From: Octopus vulgaris
Taxonomy: Eukaryota
DNA: 64,000 nucleotides
Assembly: GCA_951406725.2 (NCBI GenBank)
Contig: OX597832.1
Location: 18,972,001-19,036,000, forward strand
Direction: 5' to 3'
Each line of letters starts with the position of its first letter. Position 1 is the first letter of the stretch. A program made the translations under genes and the position numbers. Of this stretch, positions 4,160-51,120 are shown piece by piece. Below the pieces are notes generated by a model. The model saw only the letters and a list, made by a program, of their open reading frames with translations, searched no databases and was not told the origin of the DNA.

Positions 4160-4650
4160 ATCGTCTCTTTGCAACAGCTCAGGTACAGGGAAAGGCTGAA
4201 ACAGCTAAGACTCTACTCCCTGGAGAGAAGACGGGAGATGTACGCAGTCATATATACCTGGAAGATCCTGGATTGAATTGTGCCAAATTTTGGCATTGAA
4301 AGCTACACCAATGCCAGAACGGGACGACACTGCATAGTGCCAAATATACCAGCAACGCCATCACGCTCCAGGACCAGTTACTGCAACAGCCTGGGTTTCA
4401 AGGGCCCACAGATTCTTAATATTCTCCCAAGGTTTCTGAGGAACTTGCACAAAGTCGATGTAGGGGATTTTAAATCAAAGCTGAACTTCTTCCTGTCGAA
4501 AGTCCCAGATGAACCTACCTCACGGCAAGAGGTGAAAATGAGGGTAGCTATATCAAACGCCGTTCTTCACAAAGTGCTACATATTATAGGAGGCTCTTAG
4601 TAATAACGGTGGTGCATCAGCATGGCCACAGTTCTGAGCTGAAACTAGAG
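4160..4650 (+). mobile_element. 5'-truncated LINE 3' end (CR1/L2-group ORF2 C-terminus and 3' tail), decayed
   Basis: Translates IVSLQQLRYRERLKQLRLYSLERRREMYAVIYTWKIL, then (ORF 4280-4600) LGFKGPQILNILP...FKSKLNFFLSKVPDEP. This is a typical post-RT region. It ends in GGTGCATCAGCATGGCCACAG...CTGAAACT. Confidence 0.75.
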
Positions 4651-4839
4651 AGAAAAATATATATATACATAAGTGTGTGTGTGACTGTGTAAGAAATAGA
4701 TTTATTGATGTTCGTTGTTGAAATATCGATGGTGGTCATTAGCAAATTTTGAAGGTACGTTTCTTTGGACCAAATCATTTCCAAGAATATATTCTTAAGA
4801 ATAGAGTCGGTTCTCAAATGACATCAACCTCCTCCTTAA

Positions 4840-5955
4840 TCTGAGTATGCACTAAAGTAAAGGTGGCAATTAGCGACGCATTCGCTTGTCTGATTCCTTT
4901 TATGGAAAGTGTAAACAGGCATCTTCACAGGATAAAATATATATGTCTCTAGCGGGAAAAAATCTAATTTTTTATTTGAAGAAAAGGGATGCTTAAAAGG
5001 ATTTAAGGGTACTAATGTCGCAGTGAAGAGCTGCAAACGGCACCAAACACCTTGTGCGTGACCTGGATAGACGATAGAAAGTCTTACGACATGTTGCCTC
5101 ACTCGTAGATTCTGAAAACATTCAACAGGCTTTGAATAGCTGAGAACGCGTGTGCATTAATTTAGAGCAACAATGCCTAGTGGTAAAACACGTCTTAACT
5201 GTAACAACCTGCACTTAGCCGAGGTAACAATCAAAAGTGGTATCTTTCTAGGAGATATTTGTTTATCTTTCTTATTTATGAAGGACTTATCCAGCTTCCT
5301 GACACCCAGGGCAGAGAAACGTACTATATACACTGGTAGGCCATTTATACAAGCACACCAGTTTGTTCTATGCAAAGTCAAAGCGCGCTATGAACTGAGT
5401 AAAATGGACGTCTCAACCACCTTCTTTTCATAATTGATACAATTGTGTTCGCAAAAACAGAGCCTGAATTGGAGAAGCTGGATGAGACAGTGTAGTCGGG
5501 CATCAAAGATATAAGAATGCAATTCGTGATCTCAAAATGTGAGGCGCTCACTTTGAAGTGTAGGAGAAGAGCAGATTATAAGGGCATAGAAATGCTAAAC
5601 GGAGAGGGAATGGAAGGTCCGTATGTTGGTGGGCACAAATATCCGAAGCTTGATATTATGCACAGAGTAAAAGGTTACCACTGAATATTTGAAGCGCCTC
5701 GAGGTCAAAACTCTACGCAAGAACCTTGTAACTGCCATCAATACATGCGATGCTGCTGTAGTCCGCTATACTGCCCCCATTTTGAAATGGACCCTAGCGG
5801 AGATTGACGAACACGGTCGTACTACTCGATAGATGATGTCAATGCATGCTACTCTTCACTCTAAGTTGAACGTACAGAAACTCTCACTGACAAAGTGTAA
5901 AGGTAGATGTGGCCTGATTAGCGTACGGGAGTGCATCAACAGTGAAAGAGGAAAC
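4840..5955 (+). pseudogene. Decayed reverse transcriptase region of an R4/Dong-like non-LTR retrotransposon
   Basis: Frameshifted motifs appear in the expected order: EKGC.KG, TWID.RKSYDMLPHS, VTIKSGIFLGD (cf. RGIFQGD), LNHLLFI.D, KDIRMQFVISKC, NLVTAINT...VVRYTAPILKWT, KGRCGLISVRECI. Confidence 0.75.
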
Positions 5956-28569: not shown

Positions 28570-28800
28570 TTTCTTTACTACCCAAAAGGGGCTAAACACA
28601 GAGGGGACAAACAAGGACAGACAGAGGAATTAAGTCGATTACATCGACCCCAGTGCGTAACTGGTACTTAATTTATCGACCCCGAAAGGATGAAAGGCAA
28701 AGTCGACCTCGGCAGAATTTGAACTCAGAACGTAACGACAGACGAAATACGGCAACACATTTCGCCCGGCGTGCTAACGTTTCGCCCAGCTCGCCGCCTT
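28570..28800 (-). mobile_element. SINE family C, full-length, with 24-bp TSD
   Basis: tRNA-like head GGCGGCGAGCTGG...GAGTTCAAATTC and central GCCTTTCATCCTTTCGGGGTCGATAAATTAAGTACCAG. Flanked by ATAATCTCCCTATATATACATATA at 28544-28567 and 28803-28826. Confidence 0.92.
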
Positions 28801-29356
28801 TTATAATCTCCCTATATATACATATAGGTGAGTGTACCTGTTTGTGTATGTATGAATGTGAGTGTGCGGTGGGGTAATAAATTTATGTAGTATCCAAACA
28901 TCAGATTTGCCTGTCTCTAATCGTATTCATCACAAGTGTCTTCATCACTTCAACAACACCAGAAAAACAATTAACCAATTCTTTTTTTACAACGCATCAA
29001 ATGATGCTACTCCATAGAATTGTCTTTCTTTACACAAGTGTAGCTGTGTACGTATACGTACTTACGTATTTGAATTTAAACATTCATATATAAAGCGAAA
29101 ACGATTCCATGCTTCTCGAATATGTACAATAGATTGATTTATCATTCTAAAATTTCATGTTTTGAATTTATATACATTGGCATATTACAGTACGGGCAAC
29201 GTTGCATTTCCCTTGCCAAGTCTAAAATAAACAGATCCTATATCTTAAGATATTTCTCCTTCTCAGACGTAACTTTCTTATATCGGTTACTCACTGGTAC
29301 GCAGCCATTTTGAACTACCACTATGTATTTTATATGTATATATATATATATATATA

Positions 29357-30703: not shown

Positions 30704-31269
30704 TTGGGTTGTCCGGAAAGTTCCTGTCGATTTTTAAAGGAAAGAAAAAGGTCAATAAGTACTTGCCATTACATTTTTAATCAACCAAATATGAACCATT
30801 TTGTTGCACAATGCGTCTCCTTGTTTCCTTTAACTTGAAAATACCCTCTTCCCAGAATTGTGGTGGTTTCATGGCAAAGAATTTATCAAGGTCTCTTTTT
30901 ACGTTATCCAAGGAATTGAAATTTTTACAATTAAGACTATTCTGCAGAGACCTGAATAAGTGGAAATCTGAAGGAGCAACTTCTGGTGAATATGGAAGTC
31001 GGGGAAACACATCCCAGCCGAGCAGCAGCAATTTTTGTCTGGTTCCCAAAGCATCAAGTGCCGCAAATGAACTTTCTTATCTTCCATTTTAAAGGGATAC
31101 AGAATTAACACAGGTTATAGGAACATAAACCTTCTTCCACGAAATGATAGCTTAAACCGTGCTCTAAATGGAGGTGTAGTCAAATCCTATTCTATGGATT
31201 CAACCATGTTCTGAAATAAGTCGAAAGGTAAGCTACTATAAATCAGCACGAACTTTCCAGACAACACAA
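30704..31269 (-). mobile_element. Internally deleted mariner element (566 bp)
   Basis: 30-bp TIRs (TTGGGTTGTCCGGAAAGTTCCTGTCGATTT, 25/30) with flanking TA. Start MEDKKVHLRHLMLWE (ATG at 31087) is fused to the C-terminus TRQKLLLLGWDVFPRLPYSPEVAPSDFHLFRSLQNSL...NGSYLVD. Confidence 0.92.
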
Positions 31270-39504: not shown

Positions 39505-39571
<67 letters not shown>

Positions 39572-39823
39572 GACATTGAAATGATATGTCCGAGTTGCTT
39601 ATGCACAAAGTTTAACTCAGTCGTGAGTTACAATGTTTTATCCTGACAATTTTTTTGTTTTACAACTTTGAAGAGTTACACCGTCACTTTTCGAAATGCA
39701 ATTCATGGTGTCTGGTTATATTTTCAGTTTTCTCTTGGAAATCATGGGATGGATCAAACATTCGTGTTGTTTATGAATATCGGTTCCGTCGTGGAATCAA
39801 TGCATGTCAGACAGCTTGAAATA

Positions 39824-42800
39824 TTAATGAGGTGTTTGGTGAATGAGTGGTCGAATGAGTGCACTATACGTCGAGGGTTTGAGAAGATCCGGTCTTAATG
39901 AGGTGTTTGGTGAATGAGTGGTCGAATGAGTGCACTGTACGTCGAGGGTTTGAGAAGATCCAGTTTAATGAGGTGTTTTGTGAATGAGAGGTCGAATGAG
40001 TGCACTGTACGTCGAGGGTTTGAGAAGATCCGGTCTTAATGAGGTGTTTTGTGAATGAGTGGTCGAATGAGTGCACTGTACGTCGAGGGTTTGAGAAGAT
40101 CCGGTCTTAATGAGGTGTTTTGTGAATGAGTGGTCGAATGAGTGCACTGTACGTCGATGATTTGAGAAGATCCGGTTTAATGAGGTGTTTTGTGAATGAG
40201 TGGTCGAATGAGTGCACTGTACGTCGAGGATTTGAGAAGATCCGGTCTTAATGAGGTGTTTGGTGAATGAGCGGTCGAATGAGTGCACTGTACGTCGAGG
40301 ATTTGAGAAGATCCGGTTTAATGAGGTGTTTGGTGAATGAGTGGTCGAATGAGAGCACTGTACGTCGAGGATTTGAGAAGATCCGGTCTTAATGAGGTGT
40401 TTGGTGAATGAGCGGTCGAATGAGTGCACTGTACGTCGAGGCTTTGAGAAGATCCGGTCTTAATGAGGTGTTTGGTGAATGAGTGGTCGAATGAGTGCAC
40501 TGTACGTCGAGGATTGGAGAAGATCCGGTCTTAATGAGGTGTTTGGTGAATGAGTGGTCGAATGAGTGCACTGTACGTCGAGGATTTGAGAAGATCCGGT
40601 CTTAATGAGGTGTTTTCTGAATGAGTGGTCGAATGAGTGCACTGTACGTCGAGGATTTGAGAAGATCCGGTCTTAATGAGGTGTTTTGTGAATGAGTGGT
40701 CGAATGAGTGCACTGTACGTCGAGGATTTGAGAAGATCCGGTCTTAATGAGGTGTTTGGTGAATGAGCGGTCGAATGAGTGCACTGTACGTCGAGGATTT
40801 GAGAAGATCCGGTCTTAATGAGGTGTTTGGTGAATGAGTGGTCGAATGAGTGCACTGTACGTCGAGGATTTGAGAAGATCCGGTCTTAAAGAGGTGTTTG
40901 GTGAATGAGCGGTCGAATGAGCGCACTGTACATCGAGGATTTAAGAAGGTCCGGTCTTAATGAGGTGTTTGGTGAATGAGCGGTCGAATGAGTGCACTGT
41001 ACGTCGAGGATTTGAGAGGATCCGGTTTAATGAGGTGTTTTCAGCATGAATGGTCGAATGAGTGCACTGTACATCGAGGATTTGAGAAGATCCGGTCTTA
41101 ATGAGGTGTTTGGTGAATGAGTGGTCGAATGAGTGCACTGTTCGTCGAGGATTTAGAAGATCCGGTCTTAATGAGGTGTTTTGTGAATGAGTGGTCGAAT
41201 GAGTGCACTGTCCGTCGAGGATTTGAGAAGATCCGGTCTTAATGAGGTGTTTGGGGAATGAGTGGTCGAATGAGTGCACTGTACGTCGAGGATTTGAGAA
41301 GATCCGGTCTTAATGAGGTGTTTTGTGAATGAGTGGTCGAATGAGTGCACTGTACGTCGAGGATTTGAGAAGATCCGGTCTTAAAGAGGTGTTTGGTGAA
41401 TGAGTGGTCGAATGAGCGCACTGTACGTCGAGGATTTGAGAAGATCCGGTCTTAATGAGGTGTTTGGTGAATGAGCGGTCGAATGAGTGCACTGTACGTC
41501 GAGGATTTGAGAAGATCCGGTTTAATGAGGTGTTTTGAGAATGAGTGGTCGAATGAGTGCACTGTACGTCGAGGATTTGAGAAGATCCGGTTTAATGAGG
41601 TGATTTGTGAATGAGTGGTCGAATGAGTGCACTGTACGTTTAGGATTTGAGAAGATCCGGTTTAATGAGGTGTTTGGTGAATGAGTGGTCGAATGAGTGC
41701 ACTGTACGTCGAGGGTTTGAGAAGATCCGCTTTCATGAGGTGTTTTCAGCATGAATGGTCGAATGAGTGCACTGTACATCGAGGATTTGAGAAGATCCGG
41801 TCTTAATGAGGTGTTTGGTGAATGAGTGGTCGAATGAGTGCACTGTTCGTCGAGGATTTAGAAGATCCGGTCTTAATGAGGTGTTTTGTGAATGAGTGGT
41901 CGAATGAGTGCACTGTAGGTCGAGGATTTGAGAAGATCCGGTCTTAATGAGGTGTTTGGGGAATGAGTGGTCGAATGAGTGCACTGTACGTCGAGGATTT
42001 GAGAAGATCCGGTCTTAATGAGGTGTTTTGTGAATGAGTGGTCGAATGAGTGCACTGTACGTCGAGGATTTGAGAAGATCCGGTCTTAATGAGGTGTTTG
42101 GTGAATGAGTGGTCGAATGAGCGCACTGTACGTCGAGGATTTGAGAAGATCCGGTCTTAATGAGGTGTTTGGTGAATGAGCGGTCGAATGAGTGCACTGT
42201 ACGTCGAGGATTTGAGAAGATCCGGTTTAATGAGGTGTTTTGAGAATGAGTGGTCGAATGAGTGCACTGTACGTCGAGGATTTGAGAAGATCCGGTTTAA
42301 TGAGGTGATTTGTGAATGAGTGGTCGAATGAGTGCACTGTACGTTTAGGATTTGAGAAGATCCGGTCTTAATGAGGTGTTTGGTGAATGAGTGGTCGAAT
42401 GAGTGCACTGTACGTCGAGGATTTGAGAAGATCCGGTCTTAAAGAGGTGTTTGGTGAATGAGCGGTCGAATGAGCGCACTGTACGTCGAGGATTTGAGAA
42501 GATCCGGTCTTAATGAGGTGTTTGGTGAATGAGCGGTCGAATGAGTGCACTGTACGTCGAGGATTTGAGAAGATCCGGTTTAATGAGGTGTTTTGTGAAT
42601 GAGTGGTCGAATGAGTGCACTGTACGTCGAGGATTTGAGAAGATCCGGTTTCATGAGTTGTTTTGTGAATGAGTGGTTGAATGAGTGCACTGTACGTCGA
42701 GGGTTTGAGAAGATCCGGTCTTAATGAGGTGTTTGGTGAATGAGTGGTCGAATGAGTGCACTGTACGTCGAGGATTTGAGAAGATCCGGTCTTAATGAGG

Positions 42801-45052
42801 TGTTTTGTGAATGAGTGGTCGGATGAGTGCACTGTACGTCGAGGATTGGAGAAGATCCGGTTTAATGAGGTGTTTTGTGAATGAGTGGTCGAATGAATGC
42901 ACTGTACGTCGAGGATTTGAGAAGATCCGGTTTTAATGAGGTATTTGGTGAATGAGTGGTCGAATGAGTGCACTGTACGTCGAGGATTTGAGAAGATCCG
43001 GTCTTAATGAGGTGTTTCGTGAATGAGTGGTCGAATGAGTGCACTGTACGTTGAGGGTTTGAGAAGATCCGGTCTTAATGAAGTGTTTGGTGAATGAGTT
43101 GTCGAATGAGCGCACTGTACGTCGAGGGTTTGAGAAGATCCGGTCTTAATGAGGTGTTTGGTGAATGAGTGGTCGAATGAGCGCACTGTACGTAGAGGGT
43201 TTGAGAAGATCCTGGTCTTAATGAGGTGTTTGGTGAATGAGTGGTCGAATGAGTGCACTGTACGTCGAGGATTTGAGAAGATCCGGTCTTAATGAGGTGT
43301 TTGGTGAATGAGTGGTCGAATGAGTGCACTGTACGTCGAGGATTTGAGAAGATCCGGTTTAATGAGGTGTTTGGTGAATGAGTGTTCGAATGAGTGCACT
43401 GTACGTCGAGGGTTTGAGAAGATCCGGTCTTAATGAGGTGTTTGGTGAATGAGTGGTCGACTGAGTGCACTGTACGTCGAGGATTGGAGAAGATCCTGTT
43501 TGATGAGGTGTTTGATGAATGAGTGGTCGAATGAGCGCACTGTACGTCGAGGATTTGAGAAGATCCGGTTTAATGAGGTGTTTTGTGAATGAGTGGTCGA
43601 ATGAGTGCACTGTACGTTGAGGATTTGAGAAGATCCGGTTTAATGAGGTGTTTGGTGAATGAGTGGTCAAATGAGTGCACTGTACGTCGAGGATTGGAGA
43701 AGATCCTGTTTAATGAGGTGTTTTGTGAATGAGTGGTCGAATGAGTGCACTGTACGTCGAGGGTTTGAGAAGATCCGGTCTTAATGAGGTGTTTGGTGAA
43801 TGAGTGGTCGAATGAGCGCACTGTACGTCGAGGGTTTGAGAAGATCCGGTCTTAATGAGGTGTTTGGTGAATGAGTGGTCGAATGAGTGCACTGTACGTC
43901 GAGGATCTGAGAAGATCCGGTTTAATGAGGTGTTTGTGAATGAGTGGTCGAATGAGTGCACTGTACGTCGAGGATTGGAGAAGATCCGGTCTTAATGAGG
44001 TGTTTGGTGAATGAGTGGTCGAATGAGCGCACTGTACGTCGAGGATTTGAGAAGATCCGGTCTTAATGAGGTGTTTGGTGAATGAGTGGTCGAATGAGTG
44101 CACTGTACGTCGAGGATTTGAGAAGATCCGGTCTTAATGAGGTGTTTGGTGAATGAGTGGTTGAATGAGTGCACTGTACGTCGAGGGTTTGAGAAGATCC
44201 GGTCTTAATGAGGTGTTTGGTGAATGAGTGGTCGAATGAGCGCACTGTACGTCGAGGATTGGAGAAGATCCGGTTTAATGAGGTGTTTGGTGAATGGGTG
44301 GTCGAATGAGTGCACTGTACGTCGAGGATTTGAGAAGATCCGGTTTAATGAGGTGTTTTTTGAATGAGTGGTCGAATGAGTGCACTGTACGTCGAGGATT
44401 GGAGAAGATCCGGTCTTAATGAGGTGTTTGGTGAATGAGTGGTCGAATGAGTGCACTGTCCGTCGAGGATTGGAGAAGATCCGGTTTAATGAGGTGTTTG
44501 GTGAATGGGTGGTCGAATGAATGCACTGTATGTCGAGGATTTGAGAAGATCCGGTCTTAATGAGGTGTTTTGTGAATGAGTGGTCGAATGAGTGCACTGT
44601 ACGTCGAGGATTGGAGAAGATCCGGTCTTAATGAGGTGTTTGGTGAATGAGTGGTCGAATGAATGCACTGTTCGTTGAGGGTTTGAGAAGATCCGGTCTT
44701 AATGAGGTGTTTGGTGAATGAGTGGTCGAATGAGCGCACTGTACGTCGACGGTTTGAGAAGATCCGGTCTTAATGAGGTGTTTGGTGAATGAGTGGTCGA
44801 ATGAGTGCACTGTACGTCGAGGATTGGAGAAGATCCGGGCTTAATGAGGTGTTTTGTAAATGAGTGGTCGAATGAGTACACTGTACGTCGAGGATTGGAG
44901 AAGATCCGGTTTAATGAGGTGTTTTTTGAATGAGTGGTCGAATGAGTGCACTGTAGGTCGAGGATTTGAGAAGATCCGGTCTTAATGAGGTGTTTTGTGA
45001 ATGAGCGGTCGAATGAGTGCACTGTACGTCGAGGCTTTGAGAAGATCCGGTC
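39824..45052 (+). repeat. Tandem satellite, about 74 copies of a 70/71-bp unit derived from mariner transposase HTH-coding sequence
   Basis: Unit TTAATGAGGTGTTTGGTGAATGAGTGGTCGAATGAGTGCACTGTACGTCGAGGATTTGAGAAGATCCGGT(C). Copy number estimated as 5229 bp divided by about 70.7. Units are head-to-tail with no spacers. Confidence 0.97.
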
Positions 45053-45925
45053 TGGTGACTTTACTCTTGAAAATCAGATTCCGAGTAGATATGAGACCTA
45101 GGTGGATAATGGTAATTTGGAAACTGCATTGGAAGCGGATACATCTCAAACTACGCGTGAGTTAGCACCAAGGTTTCGTGTTTCGATTCCAACTCTAATG
45201 GACCCTCTGAAACAAATCGGCAAAGTAAAAAAGCTGAACAAGTGGGTACCACACGAATTGAACGAGCATCATACGATAAGTCGTCTTCAAACTTGCTGTT
45301 CTTTTCTGTCACGGCATATACACGAACCCTTTTTGCATCGTATTATTACGTGTGACGAAAAATCGATTCATTTCAACAACAGCAAGCGTTCTGTTTGGTG
45401 GTTGGGTGGAGACGAAAGACCAAGACACAAGCCAAAAAAAGAAAATTCACCAAAAATGCTAATGGTTTGTATTTGGCTGTCCAGCGCTAGTGTCATCATT
45501 CACAGCTTCATGAGAGCTTGGAATTCAATTACAGCGGATATATACATCAACCACTTGGATGAAATGATGAGTGAACTTGCAATTAAGCAACCGAGATTGA
45601 CCAATAAAGACAGAGCAATTACCTTGCAAGTCAATGCTCGATACACATATTGCACAAAGACCGCTACTGAAGGTAGCGGAACTGACCTTTGAAGTACTCT
45701 TTCATCCACCATATTCACCAAATATCGCACCAACTGACTATCACGTTTTCTAGGTGTTAGGCAACGTTTTGCAAGGAAAAAGCTTCAAATCTGAAGAAGA
45801 TTTAAAAAGAAAAAGTTTCGTGAATTTATCACATCTTGCTCTCCAGAATTCTTCGCTGCCGTGATAAACAAACTACAGATTGAATGACAAAATTGCATTG
45901 ATAATTTAAGTGCATACTTGATTAA
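45053..45925 (+). pseudogene. Mariner DD34D transposase pseudogene (linker and catalytic domain)
   Basis: ORF 45102-45692 has KWVPHELNE, FLHRIITCDEKSI and a degenerate LQVNARY. Frameshifted PPYSPNIAPTDYH follows. Confidence 0.9.
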
Positions 45926-45995
45926 CTGCATTGCTTTTTGTTGTGATGATGTTAACTTTTGGTTCAAAATCTGACATTTCATTCATAATGACATG

Positions 45996-46049
<54 letters not shown>

Positions 46050-46379: not shown

Positions 46380-47692
46380 TTAAGTCGTCAAGTAGGACAT
46401 GTGTAGTAAGGTATATTGTCAATTTTGACCACTGCTCATTTTGCGTTTTATAAAGTATTCATAAATAATTTTTCTATTTTTGTTTAGAGATGGATAAGTC
46501 AGAAATTCGTACAGTTTTGAAATATGAGTTCTTTCTTGGAAATAGAGCATCACAGACAGCTCGGAATATTAATGGAATATTTCATTCTAATACTATTACA
46601 CAGCAGGCACTATCAAATTGGTTTGTAAAATTTCGTTCTGGTAAACTTGTCCTCACAAATGAACAATGCGCTCGACCGGAAACAAAGGTGGATAATGACG
46701 AATTGAAAGCCACCATTGAGTAAGATCCATTTCAAAGAGCTCGTGAATTATTGTTGTTGTTTGGTGTTAGCAAGCAAACAAAATGGACTCACCTAGTTCA
46801 AATCGGGGAAGGGAAAAGTTCGATAAGTGGGTTCCACATGAATTCAATGAAAATCAGAAACAGCAACGTTTTGCTACTTTCTCGTCACAAAAATAAATCA
46901 TTATTGAATCGAACTGTAACATGTGATGAGAAATGGATCCATACAACAACAGTAAACGTTCAGCACAATGGCTGGATAAAGACGAGACCAAAACGTATTC
47001 CAAAAGCAAAATTCATAAAAAAATGCTGATGGTGTGTGTTTGGTGGTCTGGCGTAGGTGTGAACTATTATGATTTCATTAAACCTGGTTCATCAATCACG
47101 GCCGAATTATACTGCAGCCAAGTGCACCAAATGATGCAGAAACCTACGAAAAAAACAACCTAGATTGGTCAACAGATCCACTCCTGTTTTATTGCCCGAT
47201 AACACCAGACCATACATCGTAAAATGACATTGGCGAAACTACAGTAGTTTGAGTTGTAAGTTCTCCATCATCCACTATAATCACCTGATCTTGCCCCCAC
47301 TTAACACCACTTTTTCCAGAATTTGGATAACTCTTTGACAGGAAAAAAAATTTAATTCCGACGATGCTGTAAAGCAAGGCTTCCAAGATTTTATTGACTC
47401 TAGATTACTAGACTTTACAGGTCCTGGCTGGATAAGCAACGGCTGAAATGGCAAAAGTGTATTTGTTCCTTTATTACCCACAAGGAGCTAAACATACAGG
47501 GGACAAATAAGAACAGTCAAACGGATTAAGTCGATTACATCGACCCCAGTGCGTAACTGGAACTTAATTTATCGACCCCGAAAGGATGAAAGGCAAAGTC
47601 AACCTCGGCGGAATTTGAACTCAGAACGTAACGGCAGACGAAATACGGCTACGCATTTCGCCCGGCAAAAGTGTATTGACAATATGGTTGCA
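46380..47692 (+). mobile_element. Second decayed mariner element (related family), interrupted by a SINE
   Basis: MDKSEIRTVLKYEFFLGNRASQTARNIN...WFVKFRSG (46490), KWVPHEF, VTCDEKW, SPDLAP, KWQKCI|DNMVAY. Multiple stops and frameshifts. Confidence 0.9.
47464..47663 (-). mobile_element. 5'-truncated SINE family C inserted in the mariner, with 14-bp TSD
   Basis: Close match to 28570-28770. Flanked by GGCAAAAGTGTATT at 47450-47463 and 47664-47677. Confidence 0.92.
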
Positions 47693-50560: not shown

Positions 50561-51120
50561 GTAAATCATTATGTTATGACTTATGTTACGCATGCAAACC
50601 TATGATGATAAATTATTTTAATTTGTTACCCTTGTACTTCTACTTATATGATCAGGTCCTAAAGAATGAAATGTCGTATTTTGAACCGAAAGTTTAGTTT
50701 ATTTTATCTCAACAAAAAGCAATGCATTTAGACAAAGTATGCACATAAATTATCAACACAAGCTTGGTGCACAAGATAGTCGGACATTTTCTTTTATATA
50801 TATATTGAGAGATAGATAGACAAATGGAAAGATAGATAGATTCAGATGAATTAGGTACTTAAGTTGAAGCACCAAAAATTAGTGCAGTGTTCTCAGTACA
50901 ACTTCAAAATAAGGGGAATAAGATCAAAGTAAAATCAACATAAACAACAGGATATCCTGTTGCTTATTTTAATAGACACGCACGCGCGCGCACACACTCA
51001 CACAAAATTATGCCTGTATTTTGTATTGCATATACGACAGAGATCGATATTATATCGTGTTTCCATAGTTTGCTGGAAATATTGTATTTTTAGCTGGAAA
51101 TATTGCATTTTATTTTAGAA

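Follow-up and report, generated by a model that had tools for sequence, protein, structure and literature searches.

The window, that is, the whole 64,000-bp stretch of Octopus vulgaris DNA analyzed here, contains a mariner transposon copy whose transposase gene is interrupted by a long tandem array. The 5′ part of this host element (39567..39824, plus strand; ends ±2 bp, from alignment to 29 family copies) comprises a decayed left terminal inverted repeat (TIR), a 5′ UTR with a 14-bp deletion, and transposase codons 1 to ~27. The 3′ part (45054..45997, plus strand) carries the rest of the broken transposase (GDFTLENQ..., WVPHEL, TCDEK) and the right TIR. Between them lie the 74 units of 70/71 bp that form the array (39825..45053, plus strand), derived from transposase codons ~28–50, which encode the second half of the HTH_48 domain. 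Two (TA)n microsatellites detected with TRF border the element, one at the left end (39507..39570), where a TA target duplication is expected from the TA flanks of the family copies, and one at the right end (45999..46048). A second decayed mariner, belonging to a different family, follows at 46385..47455 (plus strand; ends not mapped) and contains the homologous helix-turn-helix (HTH) segment once. The locus is situated 19.0 Mb along a 71.8-Mb contig, and the window around the array is AT-rich with many microsatellites.

The host mariner and the source of the repeat unit

Comparison of the host element with the 2.8-Gb assembly (227 contigs) yielded 1046 candidates, of which 40 were scored; the best other family copies (best 40 of the 1046 candidates) are 77–82% identical to the host. 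The family majority sequence is 1287 bp long, including the A of each TA, has 31-bp perfect TIRs, and encodes the motifs WVPHEL, TCDEKW, QDNARPH, and YSPD.APTD at residues 114, 149, 242, and 270, with 34 residues between the last two aspartates (D,D34D spacing). The length of ~1.3 kb, the TIRs, the TA flanks, and the HTH_48, WVPHEL, D,D34D, and YSPDLAP-type motifs identify the family as mariner (D,D34D), and the last three of these motifs are those of the Hsmar1/SETMAR- and Mos1-type transposases. The host copy itself has decayed TIRs flanked by (TA)n and a transposase gene disrupted by stop codons, frameshifts, and the array. This copy differs from the family majority at 33 of 250 positions in the 5′ part and 132 of 937 in the 3′ part, the latter still matching PF01359 (E 6e-12), SETMAR 3K9J (E 1e-34), and Mos1 (E 1e-26). 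The best solved-structure matches were SETMAR 3K9J for the host and SETMAR 7S03 for the neighboring mariner.

Reduced to a single unit, the host is collinear with all 29 aligned family copies, each of which has the segment once; this collapse and alignment had been suggested in the preliminary description, which expected such a collinear element of roughly 1.3 kb. The reading frame enters the array as QTA*NINEVFGE*VV / NECTIRRGFEKIRS and reads RRGFEKIRSGDFTLENQ at its end. The boundary is ambiguous by 1 nt, a T shared by the two ends, which overlap by that nucleotide without extra bases. Collinearity and translation across the junctions thus agree with the proposed origin in place, in which a segment inside the transposase gene was amplified and the sequences on either side stayed in register. 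An independent insertion, for which a target-site duplication had been named as the hallmark, finds no such trace at the array ends, where only the 1-nt overlap was present.

The assignment of the unit to the HTH likewise stood. The 39-aa unit-bearing piece of the host matched no Pfam family; the neighboring mariner matches HTH_48 (PF17906) over residues 3–52 and aligns with SETMAR 7S03, so the unit, at codons ~28–50, corresponds to the second half of the first HTH. Presumably, it encodes the recognition helix of that HTH; coding for an HTH does not make the DNA a binding site. The neighbor, proposed as a built-in control, does carry the homologous segment only once (NINGIF...NWFVKFRSG), but it belongs to another family (66% to the majority of the host family), and copies of the same family are the better control. 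The capture of a coding, HTH-encoding segment had also been presented as special, which is not supported: for a random 71-bp piece of the host element, the probability of falling wholly within the open reading frame is 0.78 and that of falling within the first 52 codons is 0.07, and tandem repeats derived from open reading frames have already been published. The coding origin of the unit is what chance gives.

TRF describes the array as one long-period tandem repeat (39824–45053; period 71, 74.0 copies, 94% matches), and splitting into units gave spacings of 71 bp (47 times), 70 bp (24 times), 72 bp (once), and 69 bp (once), in agreement with the ~74 head-to-tail copies of 70/71 bp claimed beforehand. 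The units differ from each other at few positions, as had been noted (mean pairwise difference 4.2 of 71 positions, 5.9%), and 56 of the 74 are distinct sequences. The mean difference stays near 4 for all lags other than 10, where a recent duplication of a 10-unit (705-bp) block is visible (41094..42363, plus strand): units 19–26 (41094–41658) match units 29–36 (41799–42363) with 3 differences in 565 bp. This is the best 8-unit window, and the minimum in 500 shuffles of unit order was 10 differences. Some variants are regional, with T29C found mostly in units 7–39 and T61G mostly in units 43–72, and all four combinations of alleles occur in 10 of 15 pairs of common variants. A protein product of the array was considered and rejected, the longest stop-free runs on the plus strand being 47–52 codons, which also bears out the earlier statement that the array is not a multi-HTH protein. 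Frames on the minus strand reach 211 codons owing to the composition of the repeat.

Copy number and distribution of the array

We compared the array with contigs from 7 sequencing runs (X1, X2, X3, X5, X7, X8, and X9; X4, X6, and X10–X24 were left out). The junction between adjacent units is present in contigs of X2, X3, and X7 (organism A), X5 (organism B), and X9 (organism D), and the same 5 runs contain the 70-bp variant of the unit. In X1, which may be the source sample, one contig crosses the junction by a few bases only. X8 (organism C), low in depth, gave no junction contig, which says nothing on absence. The junction contigs of X7, tentatively an RNA run, have depths of 21–119 and are a lead rather than evidence of expression. 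The share of sampled words present in any one run was at best 0.19, as would be expected if the contigs collapse repeats. In X5, a 227-bp contig shows 9 differences from the 3′ flank; no paralog comes nearly as close, and we read this contig as the putative ortholog of the flank.

Depth provides a second view of the array. Unit contigs reach 575 in X3 against 19–46 for other contigs (ratio about 13–30), 646 in X5 against 49 for the ortholog (ratio 13), and 413 in X1 against 50–69 (ratio 6–8); the window predicts 21–25 times the single-copy depth if contigs follow common paths, and the ratios are not copy numbers. For X3 and X5, these depths are compatible with some tens of copies, and for X1 with a number below expectation. 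The number 74 is the count of the assembly, and the exact number is unconfirmed because no contig in the compared runs spans the array.

Because the junction stands in contigs from runs of 3 organism labels, the array is not an assembly artefact, and the concern that spanning data might reduce it to one or a few units is answered by those 5 runs, with the copy number of 74 remaining that of the assembly. An artefact, or strong inflation from a few units, would draw on the lack of spanning reads and on the X1 depth, which hints at fewer copies than in the window. It is nevertheless extremely improbable: the many distinct units carry shared, structured variants, the junction contigs stand at many times single-copy depth, and a haplotype join is plausible only for the 10-unit block, whose matching units show 3 differences over 565 bp.

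Within the assembly, the array is confined to one locus, which answers the proposed genome-wide search for the unit. An exact junction pattern allowing both family and array bases had all of its 60 matches in the array across 2.8 Gb, and a boundary-free dimer pattern (exact 15-base motif, period 60–90) had all of its 55 there; both searches cover the assembled sequence without diverged arrays. Used as a query, the dimer matched 39 other places once each, and the unit is 87–89% like the best other copies (both among the best 40 of 334 candidates). The other family copies compared numbered 66, of which 5 were dropped for short cover; 37 came from the dimer-query loci. None of the remaining 61 has the segment duplicated. 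The possibility that the segment is a duplication hot spot was rejected, as no second case was found in the assembly with the exact 15-base motif at period 60–90. The array has neither moved with nor escaped from its host within the assembly.

These properties bear on classification. The preliminary description called the array satellite DNA, a term that does not suit a 5.2-kb repeat at one locus, still inside its parent. Classical satellite families consist of long arrays that are independent of the parent element and number many thousands of copies or occupy several loci. It is also distinct from the tandem-repeat-carrying MITE and Helitron type (miDNA4, DTC84, and DINE-TR1), as no other copy of the family carries the array. 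Minisatellites are defined as head-to-tail units of 10–100 bp in up to ~100 copies (PMC3389668, PMC6947457). Unit size and copy number, the match of the unit to the transposon in place, and the single locus agree with a single-locus minisatellite derived from a transposable element (TE).

Timing and growth of the array

The host differs from the family majority at 13.5% of non-CpG sites, compared with 4–10% in the other 61 copies. It is the most diverged of the 62 copies compared, a rank that partly reflects the choice of copies by likeness, which favors low values, so that any dating is relative only. The differences look near neutral: pN/pS is 0.85 in the host and 0.75 in the other copies. 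Membership of the host in a separate active subfamily was rejected on this pN/pS and on the few shared differences (at most 11 of 159 with any one copy), and a local excess of mutations beside the array was rejected on the flat divergence, 10–16% across 9 bins.

Relative to the family, every unit carries 5 derived substitutions and 1 derived insertion, and a sixth derived substitution is missing from a single unit; the family base persists in 11 units at one further site and in 15 at another. The units are 3.6% from their inferred founder, or 2.2% by half the pairwise difference. Amplification most likely followed the decay of the host, because the units, with 6 derived substitutions and the insertion, are far less diverged than the host at 13.5%. 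The earlier proposal that amplification or homogenization came after the decay of the element agrees with this comparison (2.2–3.6% versus 13.5%). The fixed portion of ~10% and the 3.6% among units add up to the 13.5% of the host, which places the common ancestor of the units within the final sixth to quarter of the lifetime of the element. The low divergence of units dates the last homogenization, not the first duplication. The fixed derived bases include the first base of unit 1 and a position 8 bp from the end of the array; such edge positions are poorly reached by homogenization, which suggests that decay preceded the first duplication, and homogenization of an older array could also give this pattern.

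Taken as a whole, the array is very probably a single-locus minisatellite within a dead mariner, likely produced by local duplication and unequal exchange and likely functionless. A mariner copy would have inserted at a TA and decayed neutrally. A head-to-tail duplication of a single 71-bp piece would have followed once at least about two thirds of the decay had taken place. This first step would have involved no more than 1 nt of microhomology and may have been of a repair or replication type, a conjectural mechanism given that no clear microhomology is present. Two candidate triggers were rejected: hairpin-driven instability, as the dimer folds no better than shuffled sequences on either strand (z −0.24 and 0.21), and flanking direct repeats of 5–10 bp, as only 1 nt is shared. 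The dimer would then have expanded through unequal crossing-over, gene conversion, or slippage, gaining between one and ten units at a time, and the array would have stayed at its locus because the host cannot move. The block duplication, the four-gamete combinations, and the regional variants together form a pattern that we infer to be that of unequal exchange and conversion, processes for which models in tandem repeats have been described (PMC12628747, PMC6947457). Four-gamete patterns can also arise from repeated mutation.

A one-step origin was weighed against this stepwise growth. Amplification elsewhere or extrachromosomally, for instance by rolling-circle replication of a 71-bp circle, followed by reinsertion through homologous recombination, would be expected to leave a whole number of units between in-register flanks, as observed, and the variants are not strongly clustered among neighbors. 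However, the 5.9% difference between units, the regional variants, and the duplicated 10-unit block point to stepwise growth, the assembly contains no other copy of the junction, and a 71-bp DNA circle is very small for replication, all of which makes this route highly unlikely.

CpG content and relationship to known repeats

The unit contains 4 CpGs, as the preliminary description stated, and these are inherited, because the family majority has 5 in the same segment. Each of the 4 is kept in 68–71 of the 74 units. The host flanks keep 27 of 33 CpGs, with CpG transitions at 2 of 70 compared with 42 of 405 elsewhere, which points to a probably unmethylated history of these flanks. This retention and the inheritance of the CpGs speak against the suggested methylation role against the mariner family. 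When ranked by CpG retention, 31 family copies fall below and 31 above 0.45, two groups as would be expected if only some contexts were methylated. Within the array, 8 of 10 possible CpG transition types are present, compared with 9 of 25 at non-CpG C/G sites (p = 0.027, post hoc); without a site of assumed ancestral state, the figure is 6 of 8 (p = 0.10, post hoc). This may weakly indicate that some methylation is attracted by the array itself.

In octopus, methylation is described as concentrated on gene bodies and sparse on transposons, with a somewhat higher level on satellites, and as not being a major means of transposon repression (PMC9476566). A reading in which the array nucleates methylation or small RNAs, such that tandem amplification drew CpG methylation to a transposon piece unmethylated until then and the array may feed silencing of the mariner family, could appeal to the transition excess in the array, which has no counterpart in the host flanks, and to the relatively higher methylation of satellites than of transposons (PMC9476566). 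We regard this reading as very unlikely, given that the excess shrinks without the assumed site in a post hoc test, that the great majority of units retain each CpG, and that the unit is only 87–89% like the best other copies (best 40 of 334 candidates). The family, with copies 4–10% from the majority, is long dead and leaves little to silence, and the minor part reported for methylation in transposon repression (PMC9476566) argues in the same direction. A narrower possibility, that the fragment acquired germ-line CpG methylation solely through its tandem amplification while the flanks stayed unmethylated, is doubtful but somewhat less so. If true, the locus and its thousand single-unit relatives would constitute a controlled experiment on the first marking of a new satellite, in an animal whose transposons lack methylation.

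Precedents exist for both the expansion in place and the source of the array. The human genome is reported to contain 7,276 transposon-derived minisatellites, mostly single-locus and expanded in place without flanking direct repeats, with 5,747 of 5,932 clusters at a single locus (Ahmed and Liang 2012, PMC3389668). As in the octopus array, an internal piece of one transposon copy was expanded in place in these; the human examples include 15–17 units in old Alus, with 2–3 being typical compared with 74 here, and the octopus host is a DNA transposon and the piece coding (PMC3389668). A comparable source is described for CficCl-61-40 of Chenopodium (CACTA element Jozin, tnp2 domain), whose monomer is a transposase coding fragment with an array attached to its parent; the main satellite in this genus is described as seeded by a transposase fragment (PMC7320549). 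That repeat is a major multi-locus family said to have been replenished repeatedly (PMC7320549), whereas the octopus array occupies a single mariner locus and retains both flanks of its host.

According to one review, any transposon part can seed a repeat, with no conclusive preference (Zattera and Bruschi 2022, PMC9659126). Coding parts are the source of HinfI (CR1), PROsat (LINE-1 ORF2), and rye E3900 (gag), as in the octopus array, but these derive from retroelements and form large families (PMC9659126). The Tc1/mariner cases in its table are Mboumar, a mariner inserted in a satellite, and miDNA4, a MITE holding a repeat, which, as described there, differ from the octopus array in having no transposase-derived unit (PMC9659126). 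No tandem repeat derived from a coding piece of a mariner transposase was found in the literature searched, supplements being outside its scope. TE-derived single-locus minisatellites in their thousands and transposase-derived monomers are already known, and a new mechanism is not shown. The array is a genuine single-locus minisatellite of TE origin, and it is unusually long and clear-cut.

The array would be more important if it were methylated while its flanks are not. As it stands, its intact flanks and a large single-unit family representing the ancestor make it a tidy, datable record of the birth of a tandem repeat. It also shows a recent block duplication and unit variants common to 3 organism labels, and is usable as a marker and as a teaching case for unequal exchange.

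A direct repeat within the array unit

The consensus unit of the tandem array carries an internal 9-bp direct repeat with a 12-bp spacing (window 40548-40568), which arose from an insertion together with three adjacent fixed substitutions, and the common unit variants T29C and T41C occupy matching places within it. The repeat looks like a templated micro-event. Among other genomic copies of the host mariner family, the segment corresponding to the array unit contains a similar local copy in one (L026) and an 11-bp deletion in two (L014 and L019).

Mariners and other repeats in the window

The host mariner (39567-45997) and the neighbouring mariner of a different family (46385-47455) are each the most divergent element in their own sample, at 13.5% versus 4-10% for other copies and 8.1% versus 3.2-6.0%, respectively. 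The high divergence of both adjacent elements may reflect either a locally raised mutation rate or the selection of close copies for comparison by the search. A short interspersed repeat is present in two copies with similar translations, at 47470-47665 and at about 28596-28877, and the former copy appears to break up the neighbouring mariner at its 3' end. Further mariner sequences, both on the minus strand, comprise a 116-bp 3'-end piece of the host family (50651-50766; 89% identical) and part of the transposase of a third, distant mariner (30777-31076). Open frames at 4277-5433 may be parts of the reverse transcriptase region of a LINE. One contig from sequencing run X5 omits 750 bp of the window (45167-45918), with 4 letters in between, and is probably a host-family copy with an internal deletion.

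CpG retention among host-family copies

Across the host mariner family copies (L002-L030 and L061-L097), CpG retention shows two peaks, at about 0.1-0.4 and 0.55-0.95, and higher non-CpG divergence is associated with higher CpG retention (Spearman 0.50, p 4e-5). As a fossil map, dead mariner copies could show both where the germ line is methylated and where mutation is lower in methylated contexts.
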